A DNA stretch of 60,262 nucleotides, filler included, from Bipalium vagum (taxonomy: Eukaryota): assembly GCA_037834085.1 (NCBI GenBank). It is 3 parts of 3 records of this genome, joined end to end, with 100 filler letters (N's around TTAATTAATTAA, not from the genome) between each part and the next. Parts side by side here need not be neighbours in the genome. Positions count along the whole stretch, not along the records: positions 42,978 to 60,262 come from JBBMKC010072774.1; 2 more parts are not named here. One strand, given 5' to 3'. The notes below the pieces were generated by a model. It saw only the letters and a program-made list of their open reading frames with translations. It was not told the origin of the DNA and did not search any database. The position numbers were made by a program, and so were the translations under genes. Shown here one piece after another: positions 1,074 through 55,784 of the stretch. Numbering within the stretch: position 1 is the first letter of the stretch; each line of letters starts with the position of its first letter.

Positions 1074-2288
1074 TTGATGCCACTTTACAGTCGACAACAT
1101 TATTTTTCTGATCACAGATCAATCAGATCAAACAAAGTACCAAATAAACAACCTTCAAACACTGAAGGAATAAATGATAATACGAAATTATTCAAACAAA
1201 ACCGAGGAAATTCTAATCAAAATAATACTTTATTTGGGGAACATAAAAAATTAAATAATCGGAATTATTTACCCGCTGATTCGTTTTGCAGGAGTCGCTG
1301 TAAATCAAATGATTATTTAATTTCAGGGGGCCATCAGAGAGATAATAAATATACAAGAAGAGACTTATATGACTTCAGTGATTCAGATCGAGACGATCGC
1401 AAACATTGCCACACGTTTAGGAAAAAATATTTACAAGGGGATTCTAGACAGTTTTCTTCTAATGACGATTTTGACATTTCAAACCGTTATGACATTGAAG
1501 TCACAAGATCTTCCGATTACTCTCAAAGACATCAATTTCGACAAGAAAAAAGTATGGGTCAAAGAAATTCATATAAAAATCCCAGTCACACAGACTATAA
1601 AAATAGTAGGTATAGAATGGATTCATCTAATGAAAGAAAAATAAATAATTTCCCTGAACGAAATCCATATTCGAAGTATTCTCCAACAGATGACCAATAT
1701 AATAGAAGCACAATAAGAGATAAAGATAACATTATTCGAAGAAATAGCTATCAAAGTTATTTAAATAATAACAAAAGTGATAAAATATCTAAACAAAATT
1801 ATAATAACTACAGGTCATTAGGTTCTCGATATGCTAACAACAATGACAATTACGCCAATAATGAAGATGGAACCCCTAATCACAAAGTATTGGCATTAAA
1901 ATCAACATATAGAAAAGATGAGAACATTCCTCATTCAGGAACCAGATTAGAAAGTAAACGAAAACAATTTAGCAAATTTTCTACAAGAAGATTGCACGAA
2001 TCTAGATTTCACGATATAAATAACGATAAAGATACGAAATACGGAAACTCGAGAACCACTAATAGATCAAACAAAGCTCTTCGATCAGAAGTAACTCAAT
2101 CTCCCAAAATTTCTGTAATCAGAAACAAATACCGAGATAAACATCCAGGACACGACAATAATTTGGACCAAAGAAAGGTTTCACAATTTCGAAAATCACG
2201 GATCTCCTCTTATAACCAAGAGAGTGATAATGACAGTTGTTTCTTCGAAAATTGTCATAATGCTAACAAGTACGTTACATACCTTTAA
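1074..2288 (+). CDS. large exon of an uncharacterised low-complexity N/R/S/D/K-rich, probably disordered protein
   Basis: 404 stop-free codons in about 70% AT sequence. There is an ATG at 1077 just after a possible TAG acceptor (1071-1073) and a good phase-2 donor AA|GTACGT at 2270. Confidence 0.7.
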   Translation: MMPLYSRQHYFSDHRSIRSNKVPNKQPSNTEGINDNTKLFKQNRGNSNQNNTLFGEHKKLNNRNYLPADSFCRSRCKSNDYLISGGHQRDNKYTRRDLYDFSDSDRDDRKHCHTFRKKYLQGDSRQFSSNDDFDISNRYDIEVTRSSDYSQRHQFRQEKSMGQRNSYKNPSHTDYKNSRYRMDSSNERKINNFPERNPYSKYSPTDDQYNRSTIRDKDNIIRRNSYQSYLNNNKSDKISKQNYNNYRSLGSRYANNNDNYANNEDGTPNHKVLALKSTYRKDENIPHSGTRLESKRKQFSKFSTRRLHESRFHDINNDKDTKYGNSRTTNRSNKALRSEVTQSPKISVIRNKYRDKHPGHDNNLDQRKVSQFRKSRISSYNQESDNDSCFFENCHNANKYVTYL

Positions 2289-4299: not shown

Positions 4300-4620
4300 A
4301 ATTGACAGACAGTAGATCCTATTTCGTTGTTTTTCAACATGCAAACTGGCATAAATAATGAATACTACAGGATTCATTGCAGTGGATTTTGCATAGCATT
4401 ATCCTTTTCTGTCCAGTTATAAAATGTTTATCAAACTGAATTGTGGAAGGTGATTCAATGTCCTGGGTTCTGTTATACTAAAAATGTCACCAGATTCCAG
4501 TGAGGTCTGAATAATGATGAGATTTCTTCACAAGTAGTAGAATAGGATAAAAAACTGTTCTTGTCATGGCACCATTGCAGTTGATTACCGATAACTGACA
4601 GATTTTTTGTGAAGCAAAAA
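4300..4620 (-). mobile_element. possible non-LTR retrotransposon AP-endonuclease N-terminal relic
   Basis: Frameshifted (I)NCNG ... LIIIQ..HW resembles the APE motifs NxNG and DIIxxQETH. Confidence 0.3.
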
Positions 4621-5399
4621 ACAGCTTCAAGATTCTGGTTTCCATTAATGTTTGTCGCAGTATTGGTAGTTTAGTAATTTACTTTGTATTTGTAAAGAAA
4701 CTGTGTTTAGTAAGATGTGTATGGTAGTGTAAAACTTCGGATTAAGTATAATGAAGGAAAATAATCAGGAAGGGGTTGGTTGATGAGGTGAACTTGAAAA
4801 TAATAAAACAATTCTATTAGATTCTTGACATTTTGATGGAGGTGCCAATCAATCTAACATTTCAATAGTTCAAGGATTTTCGGAAGATAATCCGAAAAGA
4901 TCTTCATATTTCACACGTTAGCTGGAGAGAATTATCACTTTAATTTATAAAAATACAAATTTCTTTCATATATGCACTGATAAACTTTTTCAATCTTAAA
5001 ATGTTCTTATTAAGTTGAAAATATTGTTCATTATTTGTTAAATTTGTTTTATATGGAATATATTAGTTTTAATTGAAAAAGAATCATTAGAAAAGGATTA
5101 ACATTTTAATTATTTAACCAATTAATTTAATATTCTACTGACAAAGTTTCTATCCTATTCCCAGCTCAATGCCATAAACAATTTAATTAAATTTATTAAT
5201 TCTTACAATACAATAATGAATTTTAATGGATTTAATTTCTTCTTACAGATCCATCCAGTAAACCTTTTTGAAAAGATAAAATTTTCTTGCTATTTATTAA
5301 CCTATAAAAATTTTAAATTAATGTTAACATATTTAAAATTTCATGATAGGAAATATTAATAAAATAAATAAATATTCCTTTAATTCATTTTTATATTAG

Positions 5400-5503
5400 G
5401 TCATTCTGAAAGTAATATGGATTTAGACAAAAAATTCAAACAGTTTTTAGAACTTTTATTTAACAAAATATTCTCCTCTCTGTTTCATTACTTTTCGCTA
5501 TCG
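5400..5503 (+). CDS. candidate internal exon
   Basis: tattag acceptor, open frame HSESNMDLDKKFKQFLELLFNKIFSSLFHYFSLS, and gtgagg donor. Confidence 0.25.
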
Positions 5504-5958
5504 GTGAGGTAGTTTAAAAACCTTTAACCTTTTTTTCACTTAAACTGATTTTATCAGATTTTTTATTCTTTTGGGGAGAAAAGTTTCGATATCTGTTTTA
5601 TTAAAATTCTTTAAAGATTATTTTCCTAATTATTGAATTCAAAGATTCATCTTCAGATTTCAGTTAATTATTCTAAATTCAATTAAATATATATATTATA
5701 AATATATATATATTTATTAAAAAAAAGTTTACTTAGATTAATGGTTTACTTATGAAGTTGTCATTGCGGCTAACATTCTCGCGAATAATTATGGAATGCT
5801 TGAAAAGAAAGATCGAAAATTAACAAGGAAAATAGAAAAAGAATTATTTATAAGAGATATGTTGATGTCTTCTAAATTTTCGAAAAGAAGAGACTTTGAT
5901 TTTTAAAACAAATAAAATTTAATATTGGTCTAAAAAATAAAAAGTTATCATTTTATAT

Positions 5959-5961
<3 letters not shown>

Positions 5962-6000
<39 letters not shown>

Positions 6001-6002
6001 TA

Positions 6003-6035
<33 letters not shown>
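5962..6035. repeat. (ATT)n microsatellite
   Basis: Interrupted ATT tandem array seen directly. Confidence 0.95.
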
Positions 6036-6049
6036 GTTAAAAAGAGAAA

Positions 6050-6992
6050 TGGATTAAGATATTAAAAACTCAGAAAAGAATAGATCTGTGTACAATCAAT
6101 TCAACGAAATTAAAATTAGCACTTCGACTATCAAAGTAGACTGAAGCAAGTTGGCTTATATGGACTTGTAGCTGCTCGTAAACCGTTATTAAGAACAGTT
6201 AACAAGATAAAAAGATTAAACTAAGCTAGAATACATGAGCAATGGTCAATTGAACAATGAAAAAAATGTGCTATGGACAGATGAATACAAATTCAAACTT
6301 TTTGGTTCGAAACGATGTGTTTTTGTTCGAAGATATTCGGGAAAAAGATATTCAGACGAATGTTTGGTGCCAACTATAAAACATGGAGGTGACTCTGTCA
6401 CTGTATGGAAATGCTTTGATGGAGAAAATGTTGGGTTTATACACATAATTGAAATAATGAGGAGAGAAATTTAAAAAGACATTTTGGAACGAAAAGTACA
6501 ATCCATATGTTTTATTCATGATAATGATCCTAAACATACCAAGAAAATTTGCAAACGCTATTTATAAGATCTTAAAGTCAAAAAATACTAGAAATAATGG
6601 AATGGCCGCCACAGTCACAAGATCTTAATCTGATCGAATTGTTATGGGAAGAACTTGACAGAAATGTGCGAGAAGAGCAGTCATCTTATTTAGAAAACCT
6701 TTGGCACATATTGCAAGTAAAATGGAATGCAATACCCCACGAAACATTGCGTAAATTAATTTCTCGTATGCCAAAGGTCTGTGCCACTGTCATAAATAAA
6801 AAGAAGGATATTTTGACGAATCAACAATTTAAATATAAGCCTATTGTGATTAAAAATTTGTAATAAAAAATGTTTAATATTTATTAATTTCTGTATACAC
6901 ATATATTTAGCACAAATTATATTTGAAATAGTTTACTTATTCAGCAATATAAAATAAATTGTACCTGCCTCAAGTTTTCTGTCAGAATTGTA
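6050..6992 (+). mobile_element. decayed Tc1 (DD34E) transposon, 5'-truncated
   Basis: Motifs ARKPLL, VLWTDEYKF, PTIKHGGDSVTVW, HDNDPKH, MEWPPQSQDLNLIE and LISRMPKVC. TIR-like end near 6965-6992. Confidence 0.9.
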
Positions 6993-7347
6993 TATAGGAA
7001 AGAAAATGATAGATTGCTATAAACTTCCAATAATAGTTTCTGGGAAGAGAAATATAGTTTGATTAAAAAATAATCTGTAGAGAATGGTAGATAACATCAT
7101 ACTATAAGCAAATAGATATGGAACAAGGTATTATTTAAGAAAGACATAAAAAGGATTACCAAAGCTACACTTAACAAATTTAGTAATGATAAGATATAGC
7201 AAAAATAATTCAAATATCAAAGAAATTAAAAATGTAGAATGTAAAAAAATATTAAGACACCATTTTCAAAAAGAATTAGAACTTTCAACAAATTAGTAGG
7301 TAAAGAAGATTTAAAAATAACATTAAGAGGCGAAGAATAAAATAAGA

Positions 7348-7348
7348 A

Positions 7349-7406
<58 letters not shown>
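7348..7406. repeat. (AAT)n microsatellite
   Basis: About 19 perfect AAT units. Confidence 0.95.
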
Positions 7407-7409
<3 letters not shown>

Positions 7410-9510
7410 CAGTTAAAGAAAATTTATGAATTATAATATGTATTACAGAAATATTAATTTTTTTAATATAACCAATTTTAAGAAAACAGGAAATCGATAT
7501 AAAAAACTGGGAAGCGTATAAATCAGTATAATATTATTGTTTTTCATTTTAATCAAAGATGATAATTTTAATCAATACTAATTTTGTATTTTAATTTAAT
7601 CTTTATTAAAAAACTAATTTCTTTAAATATATATGTTCATTAATTGAATTAAAAATATAAAATAATTATTTCTGTCTTTTGAATTATCTTTTGGTCATTA
7701 TTAATCAAAGAGAAATTTTTGACAGATCCAGTCAAAATAAAGCATTATTATAGTGATTATATTTTTCATTGTAATATTTGTAATAACACTGTATTTCTAA
7801 ATCATTGGGTTCATTTTTTATAATAATCAATGTTTAATAATATTTTCATTTTAAAATTTCATTTTTCCTTTATTCAATAATCGGACTGAGGTCGTCGTTG
7901 AAGATTTTAGAAAAAAGTCTTTCAATTAATAAGTAAAATTTATTTCATTGAAAACAAAAATAATAAAGCTTTTTTTATTTGTCTACACAGGTTTAACAAA
8001 ATCCCAATTTTGTTCTCAAAGTTATTTTAAAATTGTTGTTAGACGATTTAAACATGAAATATTGATATTTTTATCGATTAAAAATATTTCAAAATATTTC
8101 TTTCAATAGATAAATTAAAAATTCCAATTTCAAATAATAATATTATTATTATGGTGAACTAAATTTAATATTGAAATATTTTCGAAATATTTACAAATAT
8201 GAAGAATGTTAAGTATATTTTTATTTAAATAATAATTTTTTTACATATAGAAAAAATTAAATAATTTATAAGAAAAACAAAAAAAAAATAAATATATTTT
8301 ATTTCATTTTTGGTTTGTTTCATATTATATTATCATAAATCAATTTTACAAGGAAATATGCAGACATTAAATAATTAAATATTAGCTAACATTTCTTTGA
8401 ATAGAACCCAGTCAGAATAATGAAAAATTTCTAAAATTAATTGAAGTTATAATTTACAGAAAATTTAGCCATATTTCATCATAAAAAACATTAAAAATAA
8501 AAATAATGAAAATAGATGAAAATGAAAGAAAAATTTTCTATATTAACAAAACAAAATATTAAATTCTGATAAATTAAACAAACATTTGTAAATTTGTGGA
8601 TTAGTTAATACAGTAGAAAATATTAATTGAAACTATTATTGATTTATTGAGACAAAAGATTCTAATAATCTGTGAGTCACGGGTTTGAATATATCGATTG
8701 TTTTAGCTTGAAAAATTCAATTTAAATATAAAATTAAAATATTTTTTTAAGAAAAATATTTAAAATCTTAAATAACATCATTTTCATAAATGCAATATTG
8801 TTGTAGAGTGGAGTCTTTTGTTTATGAAAACTAAATGATTGTATGAATATTTATTATTATAATTTAAATAAAATTGAAAAATAAATATAATATAATAGAA
8901 AATCAAAAGAGAAATGCGTTTAAATATTTTTAATATATTCAAATAAATAAAATAATAATTATAATATCATTTTTTAATTAAAATAAATTAATTTGATTTT
9001 ATTATTTATATCATTCAAATATTACAATTTTTTTTGTTAAAAATTTATAAATCTAAATTTATTTTATACATTAATTTAAAATTAATTTAGATTTTAGAAA
9101 TATTATATTAAAAAATTTACGTTTAAAATAAATATGTTAGACAAAATTCTCATAATAATCACATTTCACAAGATCGCCCGCTATTATCAATTTTAATTAA
9201 ATTAAATTAAATTTCTTATTTATTTTCCACATAATGATTCATGTTCTTTTATTTGATTTGTATAAGTATTTTTATTAAAAAAAATAATATTTTTAAAATT
9301 TTATGTTTTAAATTATAATGCCTAAAAATCATTTTTATTAAAGATAAAAACAAATTTGTGAATGTTAAGAAATTTATTTATCCAATGTATACTTTTCAAA
9401 AGATAGCATTTCTTTTCAAGTTGTATTTAGTATACTCATTATCATAATTTATAAATGAATGATTTTTGAACAATTATTATTAATAATTAAATAAAAACCA
9501 TAAAATTCAG

Positions 9511-9763
9511 TGATAATACAGCACGAAGATGTGTAGAGTTAAGAAAATTGAACGATGATTACAAGACCTCTGCTTCGGATGATCATAGCTCCTCAAGTTT
9601 GGATCCCACCCAAGGAAATCCGGCTGAGAAGACAGATAAATCAATATTCTCACAAAAATTTAACTCAAATTATAAATCCTTAAATTCCGCAGCAAATAAA
9701 TCAAACAATCACATCCATCATCAAAACTACAAAAGGTTATCAAATTACAAAACTATCAGTTAA
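9511..9763 (+). CDS. candidate exon, S/N/K-rich, possibly a downstream exon of the 1074 gene
   Basis: aaattcag acceptor at 9510 opens a phase-2 frame DNTARRCVELRKLNDDYKTSAS... of 84 codons. Composition is similar to the 404-aa ORF. Confidence 0.45.
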
Positions 9764-10334
9764 GTTCAAAGATGTTTCGAAAAGGCTGTAGACGCAGACA
9801 AGGCAAAATGCTGATTAACAATTTCACAAATTTATTGGAATATATTTCTTTAAAATTATTTTTTCATATCAATGATTACATTCTTTTATTGTCAATAAAA
9901 ATTTCCATTTATTACATTAAATATGGTATGAATAATATAATAAAATTTGATTGTTGAAAGTATCACTATTTCTCAAATATAAACCGACAAAATTCAAGAC
10001 AAGTTTTTGATCAATTTTTAAAATATTTATTTTAAAAAGATACAGAAAAAGTTTATTAAAAGAAAATCTTCTTAAAGATTTAAAAATAGTTCTATTTGTG
10101 TCGAGACCCCCAACTTTTTAACGTAATCCGGAAAAGCGAAAAAATCTAAACAGAAGAAAAAGCAACAAAATCAACAATCAAGCATCATTGATTTGACAAA
10201 AGACTAATTCATTGTGATCAAAATACATTTTCGTTTTTATAACTCATAAACCCTTCTGGTCATAGTTATTTTGTTAAGTTACCTGAAGTCCCTAAATCGA
10301 TTTTCTTAACTCAAACATTTCATTCAACTTAACT

Positions 10335-11230
10335 TTTTTAGGAAGTTACCAAGAGAGAAAGTGTTTTATTTAAAAATATTATCCATGACAAGCAGCACAT
10401 TTCTGATAACGCAAAATAAGTCTATTTATTCAAATGGTGTATAAATCCGATCTTCTGGAATCGATAAACTCACAGAAGGCATTCTGAACCGCACTGTTGT
10501 TGTGGAAGATTTTTTCTGTATAAGGTAATAAAAAGAGAATAAGAAATGACAGATCGATCAATATACTGGAAGAGGAAAACTTTTAAATCCCAAATCGTTC
10601 AGCTTCTACAGAGATTGTTTTGCAAAGGTGTGAACGGGAATTTTCGTGAGAGATTATTAAAGGTTTTCTATTTCCATTTTTGGTGCATATCGTCCACTTC
10701 TTAAAAAATTCTTTCTTGATTTCAGAAACCGTAGTGAATCAGACTGACCGTGGACTACCAAACAGATTCCATAGTTTTTTTTATGCAATCTCGGCTTTGC
10801 GAACTGATGTTAAGTTTCGCCAATATGCAGCCACTATGATGTCCGCTGAGGGTTGTGGTATACATTCCATTTTTCATTGTAGGGCACAATTCAATGAATA
10901 AATGTGTGCTTGTAAGTACGCAACAAAAGCGCGGAACATATTTCATAGCGAAGAATTTTCAGAAAATCGTTTAATTCATAAGACACCAATTTACATAGTT
11001 TTGATACTTTCCCAAGATGGCTTAGAATTGTTGAATAACTATTCCCCAGGGTTTTGGCAAACTCCTTAACCATTGTACGAAGAACTGGTCTGACAAAGAC
11101 CTTTAGCTCATCATTCCCAAATGCCGAAGGATGTCAATGATCTGCATCACTTTTCGGGCCCTCATCGATACCTAAGTGTTTTGTACAAGTTTTGCACGGT
11201 CTGTTGTTTTGCTGTACCCTTAACTAGAGT
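10335..11230 (-). mobile_element. decayed mariner transposon
   Basis: EFAKTLGNSYSTILSHLGKVSKLCKLVSYEL (WVPHEL region), MKNG (DEKW region) and the C-terminal QKCAACHG.YF. Confidence 0.85.
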
Positions 11231-11429
11231 TTAGTAGTTATAGTTATAAAAATAATCTAAAGTTAAAATATTCTACAATATTTAAAATTTTGTAAAAATA
11301 CAGTATCAGGCCATTGAAATAAAACAAACAAAAAATATCGTTTTTAATCGCAAATTCAATCTAAAATGATTATTTTTACGTAATTCATTATTAAATACAA
11401 GAATAATGATTTATTAAATTGAAAACACT

Positions 11430-11705
11430 AAAAACATGTTATACATATCTATTGCACAAAAGAAATTAATATTTGGTCCATATTCCTTTATTTTTAAGAA
11501 GTAGCTGCATGCTTTTGAATTTATGGCTGTCTGTTGAACATTTTTGTTCTTATGTCACAAATACTTTATTTTCTCGATCATTTCAAATTTCTAGTCACTT
11601 TATATAGAGCGAGCTAATCTTTCAAAGCCTTCCAAACATTCTCTATCGGATTCATGTCAGGAGAATTACCGGGCCAGTCCAAAAGTGGTATTTTTTCTGC
11701 ATTGA
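11430..11705 (-). mobile_element. Tc1 transposase C-terminal fragment
   Basis: KIPLLDWPGNSPDMNPIENVWK followed by ...NKGIWTKY*. Confidence 0.85.
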
Positions 11706-13129
11706 TATATACCAAAAATACTTATTTAATAATTAATAATTAGATCTGATACTAATATTATTAGAATAATTCAATTCCTGACAATATGAAGTTTTACTCT
11801 TTCCCTGTTTGTTTATCGTGATTTCTTATTCAGAAACATTTTTATCTTCACTATCAAAATCTGACCAAATATATTTTTGAGGTTTTTTTTATAAATTAAA
11901 AATTCTAAATGTGTACAATAGAATGTCTCAGTAATTTCTTATCCTGGTATTAGTGTTTTTCATTTCAGTAAAACAAAATATCTCCAGACATAATACGAAT
12001 TGAAAGAAAGAAAGAAATAAGATATGGGTATACTAGACAATTATTTTCTCTACGATACAGACCTGACGAAAGGTCTTGTGATGATTTTTTTTTGTTATAC
12101 TAAAGTGAAACAAGTAAGAAATCTTTAAACGCAGAATTCTTTGATATGTCGAAAAACGACCAAATGCAGTTGACAGTTTCTCAATATGAAACCTACAGGA
12201 ATTCTTTTCAGCTCAACATCATAAGTTTTAAACAATTCAAGAAAAGATCAAATAGTTGATATGTAACAGACAGGATCAATTTTACTTTTTGAAAATATCG
12301 ATTTAAAGATACCTCAAGTCTCTGACATATAAAGGGCACGGAATCTGAATATTAGATGCAGCTTTTGCTCATAGATTATTCATTATAAATGAGTTAAATA
12401 ATAAAAATATTAAAATCAATTTGAAATATAAATAAATAATATATTACAAACGAGATTTGGTGATATGATTTAACTTTATTTTTCCTTAACATATTTCATT
12501 CACCATCTCATAAAGGATAATCTCCGCTCAGACATTATTTAAATCGCATATTTCAAAATATGGTAACGATTTTTTTAATAAAAATATTTTGTTTTCTTTT
12601 AATTTTTTTTATATTAAAAATATCAGTAACCAATTATTTATGAATATGATTTTCAAAGTTAATTATATACAGTGAAAAGAGAATTATAAAAACTGGAAAA
12701 TTTTCAACAATTTCGAATATTGTTTTTTTAGATTTATCTTCTAACCTTCAAAAATTGATTTAATTTATATTTTATATTAAAAAAAGTAAATAAATCAAAT
12801 AAAAATAGATTTTTTTAATTCATGTAATATAAAAATCTGTTTTATAAATTTTTTAATAACTTAAAATTTCAATTAAAAAAATAATTTATTTATTTATTAA
12901 GATTTAATTTTCAATAAATAATTAAACATCTTATTTTAAAAAATGGCAGACAATTATTATTGAATTTATTAAACAAACCAAAAAAATAGTCTCAATTCTT
13001 ATGACTAGAGGATTTAAATAAAATTTATTAATAATTTAAACAAAATGAATAAATTAGAATTGTTTTTTTCGTTTATTATTAAGTTTTTATTAAGTATTTG
13101 TTAAGTTTTTTCATATACATTTTTAGTGA

Positions 13130-14245
13130 AAATTAGTTGTTTTGTCGACTTAATCTCAAATTCTATAAATGGTCTTAGAAAGCTGGGCATATCACCTTTC
13201 ATTTTCATTGAGGCTTTATTTTACTAAATTATTTAGTGGGATAAAAATAATGAGAAAGATATAAAAAATTATTTCTTTTATTAATTAAAGGATAATCTAA
13301 ATCCGAACTATTATAATTTACACCAAGAAAGTAAAATAAAATGTAAAAAGCTAAGAAAAGTTAATGAAGAATTGAGAGTTTATTGTGGTAGAATTAGAGT
13401 TCGTACCAGATTATCAGAAGAAGGCTTTAAAAAGCACAAGCCAAAAAGAAAGCTAAGACTTACTGCTTCATATATCTTAAATAGGTAAGAATTTCATGAA
13501 AGGTATCAGATATGATCGACTGACCAATGTTCTAACATAATTTTCTATGATGAAAAAAGTTTAAAGTATTCGGAAACGATGGGGCCGTAAAGCTATGGAT
13601 AGCAGAAGATGATAAGAAAATGCAAGATTGTATAACACCAGCTGAAAAAGTTTCTGATAGCGTAATGTTTTTGGGCTGTTTAACCAGTAAAGATGTAGGA
13701 AGACTTCAAATTTGCGAGGGTACTATTAGTTCTGAGAGTTATATAAGTATATTTTTGAAGGATGTCTATTAAATTCAGCTGGAGATTATTTTTCTGGTGC
13801 TTATTTATATTATTTTAAATTTCAAGACGACAATGCATAATGTCATAAAACAGTTTAAAAATGATTGTCTAATAAGGATATTCCAACACTTCTGGTCTCC
13901 TAACAGCCCAGATCCGAACCCCATGGAAAATCTGTGGGGTTTAATGAGCAAAAAATTTAATTTAAAGACTTAAAAAAACAAAATGGAGGTAATTTCAGTC
14001 ATACTTAAAGTGTAGAATAGCGATTTACCTGCTAATTTATGCAAAAAATAATATTTTACATGCTCAATAGGCTAAGCCAACTTAAAGTAAAACAAGTACA
14101 GACAGACAAAATATTAAGCATTTGTTCCAGTTTGTGATTTTTTCCTAGTTTCTATCATGTTTTATGAATAAAAGTATGAATAAAAAGTAATACTGAAATA
14201 ATGCATTATAACAGTAGTGGTGCTTACATTTCCGGACTAACTGTA
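13130..14245 (+). mobile_element. decayed Tc1 (DD34E) transposon
   Basis: Ordered motifs IFYDEK, VMF.GC, FQDDNA, WSPNSPDPNPMENLWG. TIR-like end ...TCCGGACTAACTGTA. Confidence 0.85.
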
Positions 14246-15011
14246 TTTGAGAACTATAAAGATAATTATAGTAAAAGTAACAGTACTTATTCTTTTATCT
14301 ACTAATTATAATAAGGGATCAAAAAATTTATTTATTTGTTCAAATTCTTAATATTTTGTTTGCCATTCTTATTTGTTAACAATATTAAAAATGTTAAGTT
14401 AGCATATTTTCAGGAAAGTATTTGAACCTGATTGTTTAAATTAAAAGTAAGAAAAAGTAATAAATAAATAAATGAATATACACAATTGCATTATATTAAT
14501 AAAATAGCAAGTGATAAAAACAAGAAAATTTCTATTTAAAATGGACACTTCACACCTTACATGAAATGTAACAAACCTGGATTAGAATATATTAAAAATA
14601 TAATCAATAAATAATTATATATTCCCCAATTACTTTTCATTATTTTAAAAGAGGATAATGTCAATAGGAAATGTCCCCCCGGCTGTATACAAAAATAGAG
14701 ATTAAAATTCTTCTGGCCAACTTAGTTTCGATATAAGTGAAAGAATTAAAAGTAGAATATAGCTTAAGCAATCGATTTTTCTAAGCAATAAGCAAAAAGC
14801 TCGAAAGTGATTTGGCAAAAATTGCTTTTATTTATTTCATATCACTTCTTTAAATACAGTTTTGATAATGACTTTGAAATTTACTATTTGGAAAGCAAAA
14901 GATGCTTTCAGGAAAGAATATTTTGAAAAAAAATCAAAGTAATGAATATGTAGTCCGGTATAAATAAAAATTATAAGCATTGTAACATCTTATTAAAATA
15001 ATGATAATCAC

Positions 15012-15665
15012 TATTAGGTCATTCATAGTGAAATGTCGGATTTGCAAAATTAAAGTTTGACATTTGATATTTAAAATAATTTAAATCGAAAGTTTTTTGT
15101 TTTTGTTTTACTGCGTAAATAGGTATTTACTTTTTAAAGCACATATTTAAATATCTGATTATATTATAAATTGGCATTCTTAGAGCAACTTTTCTAAACA
15201 AAGAATATTTTATAAATTCGTGTGAGTTTTGAATACGAATTCCATTGTGGAACTAATGCATAGCAAACGGTTTGAAATATGAGTGATGTATTTGGAAGTA
15301 ATGTCGTCAATGAACAAATGTTGCAGCGATGGTTTCAGAAGATCCGTGCAGGAGATTTCTGTCTTCAAATATGCCTTGTGATTGACCTAAAACGAAAGTA
15401 AATCAAGCTTAACTGAAATTTGTAGTGGAGAACGAATCATCTCAAAGTACTCAGGAGTTAAGGTTCAATTTCTCCATCTTTACAATAATTGAATATTTAA
15501 AACAAATTAACATGGTTACCTCCAGAATTATACAAATATCAGAAAACAAATGGTCTTCAAGCTTGTCTTTCTTTGTTGCTACGACAGAAAGTGGAACCCT
15601 TTCATGTGTGACAAAAAATGAATTAGATTCAATGCCACAGGTTATCAACTCAATGGTTGGATTAT
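15012..15665 (+). mobile_element. mariner 5' half with TIR
   Basis: TATTAGGTC... TIR, then IRVSFEYEFHCGTNA...DVFGSNVVNEQMLQRWFQKIRAGDF and the TCDEK-like region. Confidence 0.8.
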
Positions 15666-21970: not shown

Positions 21971-22148
21971 TTATAATAATGATAAAAATAAAATATTATA
22001 AATAAAATAAGAATAATTAGAATAATAATAAAAAAAGAAAAAAACAAATAATAAAAATAAGAAAAATTAAATTAATAATATACAAATTTAAAAAAAATAA
22101 AAAAAAAATAATAACAATAATAATAATAAAAAAAAATTAATAATAATA

Positions 22149-22248
22149 NNNNNNNNNNNNNNNNNNNNNNNNNNNNNNNNNNNNNNNNNNNNTTAATTAA
22201 TTAANNNNNNNNNNNNNNNNNNNNNNNNNNNNNNNNNNNNNNNNNNNN
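22149..22248. other. artificial contig linker (44 N + TTAATTAATTAA + 44 N)
   Basis: Exactly 100 bp with a central six-frame-stop 12-mer. An identical structure occurs at 42878. Confidence 0.95.
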
Positions 22249-22336
22249 TATTATTAGTATAACAATTATCTAAAAAAAGAAAAGAAAGAAAGATTAATAA
22301 AGAAGTAAGAATAAAATATATAAAATAAAAAAAAAA

Positions 22337-34339: not shown

Positions 34340-35258
34340 AACTTCAAAATATTTATTGTACTCACAAAAATATAAGCCACTTTTTCGAGTACTTGTTGGC
34401 AAAGTTGTGGTATTATTCCAGTCTCAATTACTTTGATGTTTCTCTGCAAAGAAAGAATTTCTTGATATCCTCCATTGAATAGAATCATTGTGTGTTAAGG
34501 TGATTTTGAGGCTATCCTATTATATATGGTAGTCCGAAGATGCTATATCTGATGATTAAGGTAAATGTTGCATTAATTCCCAATCGATGTTCCTCAGTTT
34601 GAGATTTGTCACCAAAGCAGAATGTATGTAGCTCAATGTAGTAGTAATACCACATTGAAGATAATATTCTTTCTGTTCATAAATTCTAATCATTTTTCAG
34701 TATCTTATCGTTCAATATTATCTCACCAGTTAAAAGGTAAAAATACTTTTTTATGGGTAACTTGTGTAGAACTTATACAAGTATTTTTTTGAAAATTTCA
34801 ATAAAAATTAGTAACGATTAATATCTTTCTGAAATCGAACATAAGATTTATGTGAATTTCCCAAAAATTTTCAGATTTCCAAATGTAAATGGTCGGATGA
34901 TTAAAGTCAGTCTTTTTAAAACATGTAAATACTGTTTTGTTAAAATGATAATAGCAAGGTTGAGACGAGGTCTTCACTTTTCACTTATCATATTTTGTTG
35001 CGCTGGCACTGAAATCTTGTTTCCAATAATGTCAAAGGAGTGTCCGAATTTAATTTTTTTCTATATTTATTAAAACTAAAAATATATAAGAACAAATATT
35101 ATTTTACATCAGTTCATTTACCTACTTACAGAATATTTAATGATTAATACCTTCAAAAGTGATAAATAACTAAATTAATTTAAATATTTTTTGATTATGT
35201 AATAAATATATTTGAAATAGTTAAACAAAAACGAAATTACTTTTGACTCAACCTAATA
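34340..35258 (-). mobile_element. decayed mariner transposon
   Basis: SSDIASSDY (YSPDIAPSDY) and TIR ...ATTACTTTTGACTCAACCTAATA. About 230 bp of the 5' region is shared with 47030-47243. Confidence 0.7.
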
Positions 35259-37145: not shown

Positions 37146-37531
37146 GTCAATTAAAGTGAACATTATAAATTATTAAAAATAATTACATTATAATTTTTCA
37201 TAAAATATTTATTTTTTATTAAATAGAAAAATAATGCCCGATTATAATATAAATGATAAATAATAATTTTAAATTAAAATAATATTTTTATATTGAAATT
37301 TTTTTTCTCGATCATTTCAGTTTTATTTTTTGTTTTAATCTTTCAAATTTGATATAACGGTACAAGTGTGATTGCTTCATTAATCTGTCGAGATTAGCCG
37401 AAGTTATCATTTTAGCTTCAATTAAATACAGTGAATATATATTAAAAGAATATTTTTTTTGCATAATTTAAAAACAAATAATAGGAGATTCGAAAATATA
37501 AGTTATTCATTAAACCTATTCTGTGTGTTAG

Positions 37532-37633
37532 TTGAAAAGTTAATCGGAGAAACCTGGATTCGAACACATCACTTGCGCATGGACTGCTCTGACCGCTGAC
37601 CTATGTCCCCGACAAATCTCAATTTATCTCACA
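37532..37633 (-). mobile_element. tRNA(Ala)-like module, copy 1 (putative LTR 5' part)
   Basis: TGTGAGATAAATTGAGATTTGTC-GGGGACATAGGTCAGCGGTCAGAGCAGTCCATGCGCAAGTGATGTGTTCGAATCCAGGTTTCTCC-GATTAACTTTTCAA, with A and B boxes. Confidence 0.75.
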
Positions 37634-39458: not shown

Positions 39459-40742
39459 TATGGTGGTGCATTTAAAACATGCAAAACTAAAACATCAAAA
39501 CTCTTGAAAAAAAATATTTTATTTTTATTTATTAAACATAGTCTTTAAAATATTGAGATTTATGCAGTATTTAGCTATTTGAATATAATATTGGTAAAAT
39601 GGTCTCCATTGAGATTTATTTTATTTCTGCATCTTGCCAAAAAGCAATTCATTACCGCTGTGAGCATTTCTTTTGGTATCTTGAGGATTGCATCTCTGAT
39701 AGCATCTTTTAAGTCTGTGATGTTTTGTGGTTTGGTTAGATAGACCTTGTCCTTGCAATAGCCCTGCAAAAAGAAATCCGGAGCTATCAAGTCTGGCGAT
39801 CTGGGTGGCCATCTGAAATCTGATCAGAGAAAATCGTCCTCAAGTATTCCATGTCGATCTTTTTGATGTGTGGTGTTGCTCCACCTTGTTGAAACCATGT
39901 CGAACGAATAGATATACGACACCGATGCAATTCTGGAACAAAAAACTGCTGTAACATCTCCAGATAACTCTCCCCAATGACATTTTCACTTTTACCTTGC
40001 ATTTCGAAGAAATAAGGACCAATGACACACTTGGACGATACTGCACACCATACAGTTACTCGACCTGGATGTAATTTCTTTTCGTGGATAATGCTTGGGT
40101 TTTTATCTGCCCAATAACGAAAATGTTGTTGTTTCACATTTCCGTTAAGATCACAATTTGCCTCATTAGACATGAAAAAACGGTTTAACGAGGCCCCATC
40201 CTCTTTCACCATACCAATCATCTTTTCGCAGAACTGAAGACGCAAACGGTAGTCAGTTTGCTCTAATTTACTCACTAATTGCATTTTGCATGGAAAAAAT
40301 GCAAATCATCATTTAAAATACCTTGAACACTTCGTCCGCTGATATTGAGTTAACAAGAGAGTCCGCGTGTTGATAATCTCGGATTTGTTTCAATTTCCGC
40401 GGCTACTGCAGTGATGCTTAAAACAGTTGGTATAGAAAAATTTCTATTTCTTGGCATAACATAAACATTATCCTCACGTTCGAAATGATTAATCACACGC
40501 CTAATGGTTGTTGTACTCGGTGTCTTCCATTTATATTCCCTTCTTAATGCTGTCGGACCAAAATAGGAAAATGGAATTCATAAAAAAATTTATTATTTTA
40601 ATTTTGATTTCTGGATCCATAATTATAATGATTTAAATTTCCACACTGTACTTATAACAAAATAAAACATTAAAACAAATATGCATGCATTGGAATGAAG
40701 TTATCAATCATTACTTTTGAAAGTTTTAAATGTGCCCCCCTA
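39459..40742 (-). mobile_element. full-length decayed rosa/DD41D-like Tc1/mariner-superfamily transposon with both TIRs
   Basis: TIR pair with 20/26 identity in TA context. ATG at 40620, stop at 39575. Motifs FFMSNEANCDLNGNVKQQHFRYW, LHPGRVTVWC, WFQQGGATPH and WPPRSPDLIAPDFFLQGYCKDKVY, with frameshifts. Confidence 0.9.
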
Positions 40743-42877: not shown

Positions 42878-42977
42878 NNNNNNNNNNNNNNNNNNNNNNN
42901 NNNNNNNNNNNNNNNNNNNNNTTAATTAATTAANNNNNNNNNNNNNNNNNNNNNNNNNNNNNNNNNNNNNNNNNNNN
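42878..42977. other. artificial contig linker (44 N + TTAATTAATTAA + 44 N)
   Basis: Same 100-bp structure as 22149-22248. Confidence 0.95.
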
Positions 42978-44359: not shown

Positions 44360-44850
44360 TACAGTATCGTATTATAGTGCATATTACTCGCGGGTTATCC
44401 ATGTTTTTTTATTTTAAATTATCATTCAAATGGTTAAAAAATGAGTTACATTATTATTAATAAAAAATTAAGTTGAAGTAAATAAACACTTTTATTCAGA
44501 ATAGTCTGTTGAAAATCCATCGAAATCCGAGTTCTCTTTACTGTCGTATTCCGGATTTTTCAATTGTCCATACTGCACTTCATTATTGGTAATTATGTAG
44601 GCATGTTTGAATCCATTAATTATAGTGTTTGAAGATATAGCATCCCAAGAATTAACTATCCAGTTGCAGACTGGGGCGTAGCTTGCTTTCGTTGGCATCC
44701 ATAAGCAGTAAAGGTAAGATTATCTCCACTCATCCATCTTTCCCATTCTCTTCTGATATTGGCTTTAAATGATCATTTAAAAGAAATATCAAGAGGCTGG
44801 AGAATACTTGTCATTCCGCCAGGAATTAATGCAATTTGGCATAATCTAAA
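44360..44850 (-). mobile_element. pogo/Tigger-like (DDE_1) transposon 3' part
   Basis: LIPGGMTSILQPLDISF..FKANIRREWERWM...SYAPVCNWIVNSWDAISSNTIINGFK plus an acidic tail DSDFDGF-like. Confidence 0.8.
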
Positions 44851-45050
44851 AATTTTAATTATAGTGCCGCTGTATATGATTTTCTACTTGTCATTTGTAT
44901 ATCAATATCTTTACATCAACGGATTTTATAAAAATATTCAAATATTGTGTAATAATGCGGCATCATATACAGGGTTTGTCATGTCATTTCATATATTCTC
45001 ACTCTCATTTCGTAATGTCATTTCGAAAAAGAATCAATATATCTGTTGGA

Positions 45051-45270
45051 TGAAAATTAATCTAAGATACCGGGATTCGAACCCGGGATCTTTCACAATC
45101 ACAGCTGAGCTACATCCCCTAATAATTTTCAATTTATCTCACATCCCCTCTTTTAAGGCTCACATCCAGACGCTTAACAGCCCTGAGTCTCTTACTTCCA
45201 TTTCCTTTACCTTTTCCTTTTCACTTTCGAGATCTCGTTCGTTGGTTAATTTCATTGTGTGTCACCATGT
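45051..45270 (-). mobile_element. tRNA-containing miniature LTR element (Helenus-like TRIM candidate), copy 2 with PBS-like motif and PPT
   Basis: Minus strand: ACA|TGGTGAC (45267-45261), a 124-bp internal region ending in PPT AAAAGAGGGGA (45154-45144), then TGTGAGATAAATTGAAAATTA-GGGGATGTAGCTCAG...GGGTTCGAATCCCGGTATC-GATTAATTTTCA. Confidence 0.65.
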
Positions 45271-45358
45271 TAATTTGCTCGAATTCCATATAAAACAAAA
45301 TAAATAAATTTTAGTTAATTATTTATTTTGTTTCATATGGAATTCGAGCAAATTAACA
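45268..45358. repeat. 91-bp near-perfect palindrome (hairpin)
   Basis: Arms TGTTAATTTGCTCGAATTCCATAT(A/G)AAACAAAATAAATAA, 40 bp with one mismatch, around a loop of about 11 nt. Confidence 0.95.
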
Positions 45359-45359
45359 A

Positions 45360-45700
45360 TATCGATCCATTGTTTTTTCACAAACACATTTCGTATTCTT
45401 TTTGCAATTTTTTTTAATTACTCTTTATGTAATACCACAGTCTTCATCAATCCAAGTTTTTATTACTTCAATACGAAACTGTTCCGTGGATCTTTTTCTT
45501 CCTCCACGATACAATTTCTGCTTAAATCCTCCTTCAGTTTCATAAACTCTTTTTATTGAACATGCTGTAGTGTTTTTTACACCAAGCATTGAAGAAGAAA
45601 AGTTTTTTGCTATATCCATTAATGTAAGACTCTATCATTATTTATTGGATAAATAGGAAATATACGTATTATTTAATTAGTAAAATGGTGAAATGAAATT
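45360..45700 (-). mobile_element. Tc1/IS630-like transposase N-terminal fragment
   Basis: SMLGVKNTTACSIKRVYETEG...RGGRKR...IKTWIDEDCGIT. Confidence 0.5.
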
Positions 45701-46671: not shown

Positions 46672-47243
46672 CCTGGATTTGGCGAATAAAACGATCTTCC
46701 TTGGGATTTTCAAGCAGTTTAATGCATACTTCAATACTTTCAATATTGCTTATTTTTCATCATGAAACACATTTCTGCAGTTTCTGTTGATCTTACTTAT
46801 AGCTTTCAAATATAGGACAAATTAAGTTCATCAGACAAACTTCTAGTGTTAATCGATTGATTATCTTCAATTGATTTGCACAGCTTTTCATAATTCATTT
46901 TGGCAGGTCTACCGGAACAAAGGTCTGTGTTAGTGATTAAATCAATTTTTTGAACTACATTTGCGCAACAATGATTGAACACAAAATATTCATCTTCTAC
47001 CTCATATATTTTCGCTGTACTTGTACTAAAATCCTGTTTCCAAAAATTTCAGAGGAGTGTCCAAACTTTTATATCAGTTATATATATTTATAATATTTTA
47101 TATCAGTTCATTTACTTAGTTATATAATATTTAATTATCTTCAAAATGATATATAACTAAATTAATTTAAATGTTTTTAACTATATAATAAATTGCTTTG
47201 AAATATTTAAACAAAAAGAAATTACTTATAGTTCACTGTAATA
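46672..47243 (-). mobile_element. mariner 5' half, same family as 34340-35258
   Basis: SGRPAKMNYEKLCKSIEDNQSINTRSLSDEL, a DEK motif, and the shared 5' UTR/TIR. Confidence 0.75.
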
Positions 47244-50042: not shown

Positions 50043-52151
50043 GATTTTATTAAAAAATTTATATCTTATTTTTGAAAATTTATTAATAAAATTCGTTTTG
50101 CCTAAATTGTAATTATCGATTTTTTAAAAATTGTTTAAGGATTTTTAAAATTAGTACTTTTTAAATAAAATTTTTGCCATGGTATAGATTTAACCCAGTT
50201 AATATATTTGGTAATAAATAACTAAATGATATTTATAGTTATAGTAACTTTAAAATGAATTTAAAAATGGAAAAAAATATTATTTCTTATTAATCTTTTT
50301 GAAAATAGTGAAAAAGTTCTTTTTTGTTATAAAATGGGTTAAAAAGTTTTGAAAACGGAAAATGTTTTTGAAAAACAAAGGGTGTGGTGCTGCCATGTAT
50401 TACTTTTTATGGTACTAAACTAGAAGTTGACATAAAAACTCATGAAACCGCCTTATTCAAAATCTGTTAATGTATTATTAAAAATTAAACAATACAATAA
50501 CAGTAAGTCCAATAAATAATACTAATAAAACATTTTTAAAATAATTAAACATTTTTGAATCAAATAATCCGTAATTTTTTCTTCTTATCCATGTTCTTGT
50601 CGTAAATCCATGATGAACGGAAAATCATGAATTTTATGTTTGTGGTAGATTTCATGATTGCCTCAGATTGTAAAATATCTTAAAAGTGTCTGATTATCTT
50701 GCTGGCAATATAATATTGTCTTCATGTTATTGTTTAGGTCATTGTTGAATTTGAAAAATATATATATAACAAAATATTATTTAAACAAATCAAAAGTTAT
50801 TAAATTTTTTATATTTTACATGAAATTAACTGAAATATGATAATTACAAATAAATGGACCAAATGTAGAAGTTGGTCTGATTATAGAAGTAGTCAAAATC
50901 AGGTGACCCAAAATAGAAATTCGACTGTAATTAAGAAACGAACTCAGATCAGATTTTCTTTACTTAATATTGTCAGAAAACCTTTTAGATTTCGAATAAA
51001 AAACTTGATGTTGAATAATTATTCTTTGGATTAAAGTTTTGTGCATTGTGTAAACAAACTGACAATAGTTTAAGTCTTTTAGAAAAAATTGATATACTTT
51101 TAAATATGTGATTTTTGAGGAATTACGGTAGACGAATTACGTAAGTTCATCCCATATCAAAAATTGATAATGAAAGTGTAATTAATGCTGCACAAAAAAG
51201 TCATTCTGACATTGAATCTTTCTTTCATTGTTTTTTCAATGCATTTCCAACAATTACCAGCTTCATTTAGCGTACTCTGTCGATTTCATTTATTCTAGAA
51301 TACATTTTTTAATTTTTACAAGTAAAATTGTAATAATTAACAGTTGAAACTCAATTTTTATTAGTTTATCAAATTTAAATATATTTTAACAATAAATCAA
51401 ATTTTGATAGGAGTTGAACTTACTTAATTCGCCTTCTGTATAATAATTTATTTTAATATTTTTTGAATTGTTTGTTGATCCCTGTTTAACAATAGTTTAA
51501 TAAATATAGAGAAACGTATATATACATCCTGAGATAAGAGATATATGCAAAGGGTGGCCGATGTACCCATTATCCCACGGATAAATATATTGACAATCAT
51601 CGATGAAACCTGGAATGTTCACACTGCATTTACAGAAAGTTTGAATAAAATCAACAAAATAATTCCCGTGCATCCTTATGAATATTAATAAATATATGAA
51701 TTAAAAATGGTCTCATATCTCAATACAAACTGGGTCTGTCGATATTTGTTTTACTGTGATAAAATTGAGAATGAAGTTTTCCTCTCGATTTAATTTACAA
51801 GAATATCTGAGAACAACAATCAATCTTACAGTCAATATATACTCTACGCTTAAATCGAAATATTAAATAATTAATATTTATTATTAAAACAAAATCTCTT
51901 CATATATATAAATAATTTTTTATAAATTTTAAAATGTTTCAGAAATTTCAAAAAGATTAAGAGAGGGATTTTCAACAGACGTAGAAAAAATCAATTTATT
52001 TAAAATGAAAACTAAAATATTTTTTTCATTATTTAACTTTGAATATATAAATAAATATATATACATAAATCGATATTTGACTATCGTAAACAGACTTAAT
52101 ATTTATATTTGTATTGCATTACAATTATTACAAAAATAAGCAATAAAAGAA

Positions 52152-54829: not shown

Positions 54830-54945
54830 TGTGAGATAAATTGAAAATTAGTCGGGGGATGAAGCTCAGAAGTCAGAACAGTCCATGCGTATGTGAAAGG
54901 TCGAATAATTGGGTTTTAATCCCGTTATCTCCGATTAATTTTCAA
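54830..54945 (+). mobile_element. tRNA(Ala)-like module, copy 3
   Basis: TGTGAGATAAATTGAAAATTAGTC-GGGGGATGAAGCTCAGAAGTCAGAACAGTCCATGCGTATGTGAAAGG...GGGTTTTAATCCCGTTATCTCC-GATTAATTTTCAA. Confidence 0.75.
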
Positions 54946-55784
54946 AAATAATAATAATTTACAAAAATAAAATTCGAATAATGTGATAATAATATTATAT
55001 TATTTTTAAAAAAACCAAGGATACAATTTCGTTATTCTTTTAAATTGGTAAATAAAATTGTTTTGAATTTTAAGTTTCGAACAAAATATTTATTAAAAAA
55101 ATTTATGGATTCAAAATTTTGTGAAAAAATAAGAATAATTTCGATTCTTAATCGATTCTTAAATCATAAGTTAGTCTACGATCCGGTACCGATTAAAACA
55201 AAACTGATACAGTTTAAATAGGAAATAATTTATATTTTATAATAAATTAAAATTAATGTTAAATTTCTTCACATACCTCCATGAAATTTAATCATTCTCT
55301 CGGTTGTCACAATAAAAAATCTTTCATATTAATCAAGAGCAAGAGTATATCATTAAAATAATCTATTAATTCTATAAATTATGCGGGATATTTTAAAAAT
55401 AAATTGTGAATTTTAAATTACTATGATTGATTATTCTTCTTTTATCAATAAAATATGAACTATTTCTCTTGGTTCTTTGAAATTTTATGCTTTAAAGAAT
55501 TATGAAATTATTTCTTTATATCATACAAGTTTTAATTATTTTTCCGAAAACTTGATAAGTTTTTTTATGAAGAAAAAGTATGAATTGAATATCTACTTCT
55601 TCATAATAATAATAATGATAATAATAATAGTAATAATAATAATAATCAATAAACAAATAAATATATTAAAAACAAAATATTAAGTATTTTGACCTAAAGT
55701 TAAAACTATATATATAATTGGTTTGATATACTCTCATTTTCAATAAAAACGCACCACTTTTAGTAGTGGAAATAAATTTTCTTA

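Follow-up and report, generated by a model that had tools for sequence, protein, structure and literature searches.

A hairpin and a tRNA-bearing LTR in a likely hybrid insertion of the flatworm Bipalium vagum

We describe a 315-bp stretch on the minus strand (45044-45358) of a 60,262-nucleotide window of the Bipalium vagum genome (assembly GCA_037834085.1; 'the window' below means this whole stretch of DNA) that is most likely a hybrid, in which a hairpin forms the 5′ end and a tRNA-bearing LTR the 3′ end. The family to which this LTR belongs is very probably a Helenus-like TRIM, Helenus being the group of tRNA-containing TRIMs ('TRIMp3') described by Kojima in 2024 (PMC10886601). The best reading of the whole unit, to which we give a probability of about one half, is that another small element and a Helenus family were combined before integration. 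An extension of Helenus such as the tRNA-LTR family was to be expected; what surprises is that the ends do not match.

The tRNA-bearing LTR and its family

The LTR starts with TGTGAGATAAATTGAAAATTA at 45143, directly behind the purine run AAAAGAGGGGA (45154-45144, minus strand). It contains a decayed tRNA-like unit at approximately 45119-45062, presumably of the alanine type, which lies within a short inverted repeat and is followed by TTTT at 45056-45053. An earlier note on this DNA, made from the sequence alone, had picked out this unit by its A-box-like motif TAGCTCAG and its B box GGTTCGAATCC. Both are present, and the tRNA-like module has two homologues in the window, with local scores of 54-74 that were reached by none of 500 shuffles. 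The same note had placed the limit of the element at 45051; alignment of the three copies moves the LTR end to 45044, where 47 contigs also leave.

All three LTR copies begin with TGTGA, 24-25 nt ahead of the tRNA-like unit, carry both A and B boxes, and share the short inverted repeat and the TTTT behind it. They are 100-117 bp long, two of them terminate in AACA, and the one at 45044-45143 has a 15-nt deletion after the A-box-like motif relative to the other two. A profile built from the three copies found no fourth in the window. Both extra copies lack the purine tract and the internal piece (37526-37633, 54830-54946). The flanks of the 37526-37633 copy match at four of five positions, as occurs by chance at 2570 of 59426 window positions, and the 54830-54946 copy runs into a TAA-type repeat, so that a possible ATAAT/ATAAT duplication there is ambiguous.

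Neither ARAGORN nor Rfam at its gathering score reported a tRNA gene in the window; the best Rfam tRNA score, that of the 54830 copy, was 14.3 bits (cut-off 29 bits), and no Rfam tRNA match was listed for the copies at 45044-45143 and 37526-37633. The features of a tRNA-derived SINE are likewise missing from these copies, in which the tRNA unit lies behind 24 nt of fixed sequence and two of the three end without a tail at CA, the third running into the TAA-type repeat. Metagenome scans with two LTR patterns gave no matches with either, and a scan of prokaryote genomes gave three, aligned only over profile positions 1 to 21-25 and regarded as chance.

Further copies were seen in the contigs of one public sequencing run, possibly from the source sample, which were aligned to 44920-45490 at 80% likeness, with 1126 contig records placed. 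Summed contig depth, which is no copy number and compares with approximately 20 for single-locus contigs, rises to as much as 146,658 on the B-box part of the LTR and is about 1,300-1,800 on the internal piece over 45160-45242. Among the six loose-end positions listed of 186, 78 contigs leave at 45143 (agreement 0.44) and 47 at 45044 (agreement 0.48), both with mixed flanks, and 47 further contigs leave at 45051, 7 nt before the CA of the LTR. At least four contigs from other loci, among the 8 of 1161 pieces listed, lead from the LTR across the purine tract and on into the internal piece. Because there are many solo copies and fewer with the internal piece, and because the ends are sharp and the flanks mixed, the repeat is better described as a Helenus-like LTR than as a SINE. 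The evidence thus supports an LTR of the Helenus kind, and a SINE or a tRNA gene fits poorly. The depth on the LTR itself differs about sevenfold between the B-box part (45060-45099) and the 5′ part (45120-45143), a difference that subfamilies, true tRNA genes or the divergence of the 45044-45143 copy may explain.

Structure and insertion of the 315-bp unit

Table 1. Features of the likely hybrid unit, its target and the related LTR copies in the window
Feature	Coordinates	Strand	Basis
5′ target-site duplication copy, GATAT, 5 bp	45359..45363	-	exact 5-mer match to 3′ copy
Near-perfect hairpin, 91 bp, in the position of a 5′ LTR	45268..45358	-	fold, repetitiveness, no LTR homology
PBS-like TGGTGAC	45261..45267	-	7-nt match to Trp PBS; candidate only
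Internal piece, 124 bp, non-coding	45144..45267	-	sequence, stops, contig depth
Polypurine tract adjoining 3′ LTR	45144..45154	-	sequence; other-locus contigs
3′ LTR, 100 bp, TGTGA...CCAACA	45044..45143	-	three-copy alignment, loose contig ends
A-box-like motif TAGCTCAG	45102..45112	-	sequence, alignment of LTR copies
B box GGTTCGAATCC	45073..45083	-	sequence; T-arm match in Rfam alignments
3′ target-site duplication copy, GATAT, 5 bp	45039..45043	-	sequence; 0-difference bridging contig
Target: N-terminal part of decayed Tc1/IS630-type (DDE_3) transposase gene	45362..45628	-	17 protein relatives, tblastn
Five codons (IDSFS) resuming the transposase in register	45024..45038	-	column score against relatives
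Second tRNA-LTR copy, solo, flanks CACAA / CACAG	37526..37633	-	self-comparison, three-copy alignment
Third tRNA-LTR copy, solo, decayed 3′ end	54830..54946	+	self-comparison, three-copy alignment

The features of the unit and of its surroundings are listed in Table 1. GATAT stands directly outside the TG of the hairpin and directly outside the CA of the LTR, and the same spacing gives an exact 5-mer match at 250 of 59140 window positions (0.4%). A 4-bp duplication is ruled out, as the 4-mers at the CA end differ. The left flank is part of a Tc1/IS630-type transposase that aligns from 45628 to 45362 by tblastn; in a full HMMER search this frame has 17 relatives at E<=0.001, eight of which carry Pfam HTH/DDE_3 domains, and a word-index protein search with the same frame gave 17 candidates, none at E<=0.001. 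In the left flank the transposase breaks off at KTMDRY, and the sequence to the right of the 3′ duplication reads IDSFS, where the relatives have, for example, LNNFS, ISSFL and INEFN. Scored against the 11 of 15 relatives that have residues in these columns, IDSFS is equalled by 74 of 119620 window 15-mers (0.06%), and register offsets of -2, -1, +1, +2 and +3 score -7.7 to 4.1 against 9.9. The frame is lost beyond these codons. With GATAT on both sides and the transposase frame resuming in register, we are confident that the unit was inserted in one event into an old Tc1/IS630 gene. A small repeat at 44960-45019, containing a 16-nt direct repeat, lies near the point where the frame is lost and has a summed depth of 170-370 against about 25-40 beside it.

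At the 5′ end, hairpin arms of 40 nt each (45268-45307 and 45319-45358) are 98% complementary and enclose a loop of 11 nt, with termini TGTTA...TAACA, a predicted fold with an MFE of -52.0, and two TTTT runs on the sense strand. Compared with the three tRNA-LTR copies the hairpin scores 14-15, values equalled by 197-464 of 500 shuffles, in keeping with the earlier note's remark that the 5′ end could not be matched to the 3′ LTR; there is no homology, and a fold-back of the tRNA-LTR is thereby ruled out as the source of the hairpin. The two ends do share short microhomology at their termini (TGT, AACA). No second hairpin copy was found in the window, where look-alikes at 5019-5059 and 15503-15519 are weak and represent AT-rich or chance matches. 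In the sequencing run the hairpin is repetitive, with summed depths of about 4,300-15,300 on the arms and 1,621 in the centre. At this locus it has no duplication of its own, being flanked by GATAT and TGGTG.

The junction TTAACA|TGGTGAC (45268/45267, minus strand) had been read in the earlier note as the border between a 5′ LTR and a PBS. The motif is there, and the CA of the hairpin abuts TGG as a 5′ LTR would, an arrangement found at 42 of 6174 CA sites in the window; the supposed LTR is not, since TTAACA ends the 91-bp hairpin, which the note had overlooked. Its wider proposal of a decayed TRIM rather than a SINE or tRNA gene holds for the nature of the LTR and fails for the decayed two-LTR copy, in whose place stands an intact and unrelated hairpin. 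Target-site duplications of 4-5 bp around TG...CA ends, which it had named as a mark of such elements, do flank the whole unit as the 5-bp GATAT; two matching LTRs, named likewise, are not found in the 45044-45358 copy.

The 124-bp internal stretch (45267-45144) ends with AAAAGAGGGGA and abuts TGTGAGATAAATTGAAAATTA, as the note had described. It is purine-rich, has no TTT on its sense strand, and has stops in all three sense frames; the peptide SKRLRAVKRLDV, which the note had also read there and likened to a gypsy pol C-terminus, is encoded within a 25-codon stretch after a stop. No TTT occurs in the 211 nt that begin with the primer site and reach the LTR's TTTT; 113 of 118052 window stretches are likewise free of it, and base composition accounts for this in part, 11.7% of 10000 same-composition shuffles being TTT-free as well. 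Of the 1915 TGT sites in the window a single one follows a run of 11 purines with at least five G, and together with the contigs from other loci in which the tract abuts the LTR this bears out the note's view that the border between tract and TG marks a 3′ LTR. The PBS-like TGGTGAC gives 7 contiguous nt and 8 of 9 matches to Apis tRNA-Trp and the tRNA-Trp PBS shown for Gypsy-32_NVi and Helenus-2_SyJa, two elements whose own match extends over 12 or more bases (Fig. S2 of PMC10886601). Judged from the sequence, tRNA-Trp is a possible primer, and a lead only. The internal piece recurs in other copies over approximately 45144-45245. In most of these, roughly the first 20 bases are unlike those of the present copy, and it may therefore be that the PBS-like segment goes with the hairpin rather than with the main tRNA-LTR family.

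Origin of the unit

The junctions of the unit and the joints seen among the contigs bear on how it arose. The junctions of the 3′ LTR with the right flank and of the hairpin with the primer site are each bridged by a contig with no differences and more than 31 letters on each side; for the other two junctions of the unit the short side is 23 and 27 letters among the contigs listed. Two contigs join 45208 back to 45051, from the internal piece to the end region of the tRNA-LTR, and one joins 45203 to 45116, from the internal piece into the tRNA-LTR. This suggests that canonical copies exist, in which a tRNA-LTR precedes the internal piece, the letters between the joints being unseen or shortened. 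One contig joins 45203 to 45274, from the internal piece to the hairpin, and another, which is short, AT-rich and doubtful, joins 45143 to 45304. The 16 joints listed include none from the hairpin to the purine tract and none from the primer site to the end of the tRNA-LTR, and the listed contigs do not display a complete two-LTR copy.

At the upstream end of the internal piece the depth, about 1,300 at 45242, is down to 106.9 at 45248-45256, most internal copies departing at approximately 45243-45247. The value of 106.9 is the sum of 20.3 from this locus and 86.6 from four other contigs that share a variant letter. Measured at six positions, the distances to the contig end all lead to 45294, which lies 27 letters into hairpin coordinates. 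From these summary numbers we infer at least one other locus with internal piece, primer site and hairpin, and there is a hint of up to four sister copies of the hairpin-headed unit. The flank depths of about 86 and about 125 are compatible with duplicates of the host region.

Under our preferred reading, of two small elements joined before integration, the Helenus-type family would be built of a tRNA-LTR, primer site, internal piece, purine tract and second tRNA-LTR. Its Pol III transcript would start from the A and B boxes in the 5′ LTR, stop at the TTTT in the 3′ LTR and be copied by a helper element supplying reverse transcriptase and integrase, with recombination leaving solo LTRs; the working model for Helenus has itself not been validated (section 4.1 of PMC10886601). 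The hairpin would be the terminal repeat of a second tiny element using the same helper, and the exact CA|TGG junction favours both its role as an LTR-like terminal repeat and an exchange near the primer site. In its normal course, template switching included, reverse transcription yields two LTRs that are identical (PMC6894440), so that the hybrid copy needs an extra step. Such an exchange might have fallen at the primer site or no more than about 20 bases from it, while the plus strand was being made or between cDNAs. The product would be a linear DNA with two different TG...CA ends, integrated in a single event with a 5-bp duplication by a borrowed LTR-retrotransposon integrase. Intermolecular plus-strand transfer is one possible route of exchange, and the literature searched contained no description of it in TRIMs. 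Normal copying would be closed to the hybrid, which has neither a Pol III promoter upstream nor a terminal repeat. In favour of this reading count the GATAT duplication and the resumed transposase frame, the bridged hairpin/primer-site junction and its CA|TGG, the TGTNR pattern given for Gypsy LTRs (PMC2836005), which both ends of the 315-bp unit match, the joints that suggest canonical members, the TTT-free 211 nt, and the chimeric TRIMs known from sugar beet (PMC13570524). Against it, the 16 joints show neither a symmetric parent with two hairpin LTRs nor a link from primer site to tRNA-LTR end, and most internal-piece depth leaves this copy before the primer site; a one-off hybrid in particular does not predict the four other contigs at 45248-45256, at least one of which apparently extends 27 letters past the primer site.

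These same contigs, with their ends converging on 45294 and no tRNA-LTR joint there, are what speaks for an asymmetric subfamily, in which a palindromic 5′ end and a tRNA-LTR 3′ end were copied and integrated as such at several loci. The contig joining 45203 to 45274 and the missing joint from hairpin to purine tract fit it too, and one may speculate that minus-strand synthesis starts from a co-packaged canonical Helenus RNA while the palindromic 5′ end replaces the terminal repeat. We nevertheless consider such a subfamily unlikely: the contigs may end in a third sequence, their continuation being deduced from summary numbers, the flank depths fit duplication of the host transposon or segment, and at most about five loci are indicated. 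The greater depth of the hairpin arms than of its centre, as of conserved arms around a variable middle, resembles a MITE, and raises the rather unlikely possibility that a Ginger-type MITE landed in a Helenus copy, exactly where LTR and primer site meet, and that a composite DNA transposon later moved from there. A Ginger transposase would in that case have mobilized hairpin, internal piece and 3′ LTR together, the CA end of the LTR serving as the second terminus, which we rate no higher. The inverted repeats of about 40 bp or more and the TGTNR ends looked for in a Ginger-type MITE are found in the hairpin. Ginger elements have TGTNR ends, TIRs of 40-270 bp and duplications of 4 or 5 bp; the hairpin is like Ginger1 and Ginger2-Tdd in its 40-bp inverted arms and terminal pattern, and duplications of 5 bp occur in Tdd, according to the relevant parts of PMC2836005 and PMC10045372. 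However, the insertion would have to fall exactly at CA|TGG; the hairpin here forms just one end of the duplicated unit, with a PBS-like motif behind it; and animal Ginger1 and Ginger2 duplications, as given in PMC2836005, are of 4 bp, at CCGG/CCGT or RTATAY targets.

Separate insertions followed by chromosomal deletion or gene conversion, with the 5-bp match a remnant of one parent or chance, could be imagined in a region that is a pile of decayed transposons, where both ends share TGT and AACA microhomology, and post-integration recombination is described as common in TRIMs (in the sections of PMC13570524 drawn on here). At least two precise events that kept both the duplication (0.4%) and the transposase register (0.06%) would be needed, and we think this origin improbable. 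That the unit contains a tRNA-derived SINE or tRNA pseudogene, its layout a coincidence or an assembly join across two repeats, is the least credible: most copies do lack the internal piece, the 54830 copy ends in a TAA-type repeat, the 47 contigs leaving at 45051 do so 7 nt before CA, and hairpins can mislead assemblers, but the TG start is fixed 24 nt before the tRNA unit, the CA end is sharp, purine tract and internal piece are attached at other loci, the duplication and the split transposase span the whole unit, and ARAGORN and Rfam detect no tRNA gene.

Relation to known elements and genomic setting

The tRNA-LTR family resembles Helenus, as described in the parts of PMC10886601 used here, in its tRNA-like A and B boxes within a short TG...CA LTR, its PBS-like start and purine tract, the TTTT after the tRNA unit (as in fungal sequences of Data S1), its many solo LTRs (Table S3), and its size, 315 bp here against 311-1263 bp. 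The short non-coding internal piece with stops in all sense frames is a further likeness. The differences are that the two ends of the 45044-45358 copy are unrelated, where Helenus has two matching LTRs, that the LTRs, of 100-117 bp, lie at the low end, that the PBS match is just 7 nt, and that the duplication is 5 bp, against 4 bp in all animal rows with a value in Table S1 (PMC10886601). Duplications of 5 bp occur in Helenus of fungi and a plant (PMC10886601), and the length here was assessed at three loci only, giving 5 bp, a match at four of five positions, and an ambiguous case. Its two unlike ends and 5-bp duplication mean that the 45044-45358 copy is not classifiable as a Helenus member, and the duplication points to a helper differing from that of the 4-bp animal families.

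Pol III-type gene fragments in the LTR are also known from Ajax and Cassandra, and Ajax is an animal element with 5-bp duplications; both differ in having 5S instead of a tRNA, and two matching LTRs (parts of PMC10886601). The chimeric TRIMs of sugar beet likewise join LTRs of different non-autonomous families by modular exchange, and differ as plant elements with additional LTRs from another family; the sections of PMC13570524 drawn on describe no two-ended element with a palindromic 5′ end. Among flatworms, the ta-TRIM of taeniid cestodes has a short PBS, a purine tract and many partial copies, and differs in its matching LTRs of 198 bp and its tRNA-Leu primer, with no tRNA-like unit in the LTR mentioned in the portions of PMC4558846 consulted. 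Flatworms are missing from the main text and Table 1 of the Helenus paper (PMC10886601), and neither a flatworm Helenus nor a TRIM with a hairpin in place of its 5′ LTR was found among the papers listed in searches of openly accessible literature.

The tRNA-LTR family would extend Helenus-type elements to a flatworm, and the locus at 45044-45358 reveals two parts absent from solo LTRs, the internal piece and the purine tract. A hybrid would be a cleanly bounded LTR-type insertion with two unrelated ends, not expected from standard reverse transcription, and one that LTR-finding programs needing two matching repeats would miss. Should it be an isolated case, it would be a curiosity and a sign that one helper serves two tiny families; recurrence of the layout at independent loci would require strand transfer to be explained anew.

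The window is AT-rich (GC 19-30% per 2 kb), has three open frames of 120 codons or more, and contains many decayed transposase fragments, most of which we take to be of Tc1/mariner type. None of 17 possible exon frames matched Pfam, and a Pfam search with seven window frames gave one match of note, to DDE_3 at 6576-6860 and below the cut-off. Decayed frames just downstream of the 315-bp unit, at 44492-44895 (minus), resemble a pogo-type transposase, for example in LQPLDIS and W..I..N.F; a Pfam search with 44495-44719 had no match. Decayed Tc1/mariner-like fragments lie at 39575-40577 (minus), 6220-6863 (plus), 46806-47048 and 34990-35242, and the last of these is 74% alike with 47006-47227. 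At 1074-2288 (plus) an open frame of 404 codons, of low complexity and with much R, S, N and D, has no Pfam match and is probably a large exon. Inverted repeats at 22138-22259 and 42878-42977 span runs of N and are not real palindromes as far as shown, and 45-nt inverted repeats at 51124-51440, which are 82% complementary and 227 nt apart, probably mark another MITE.
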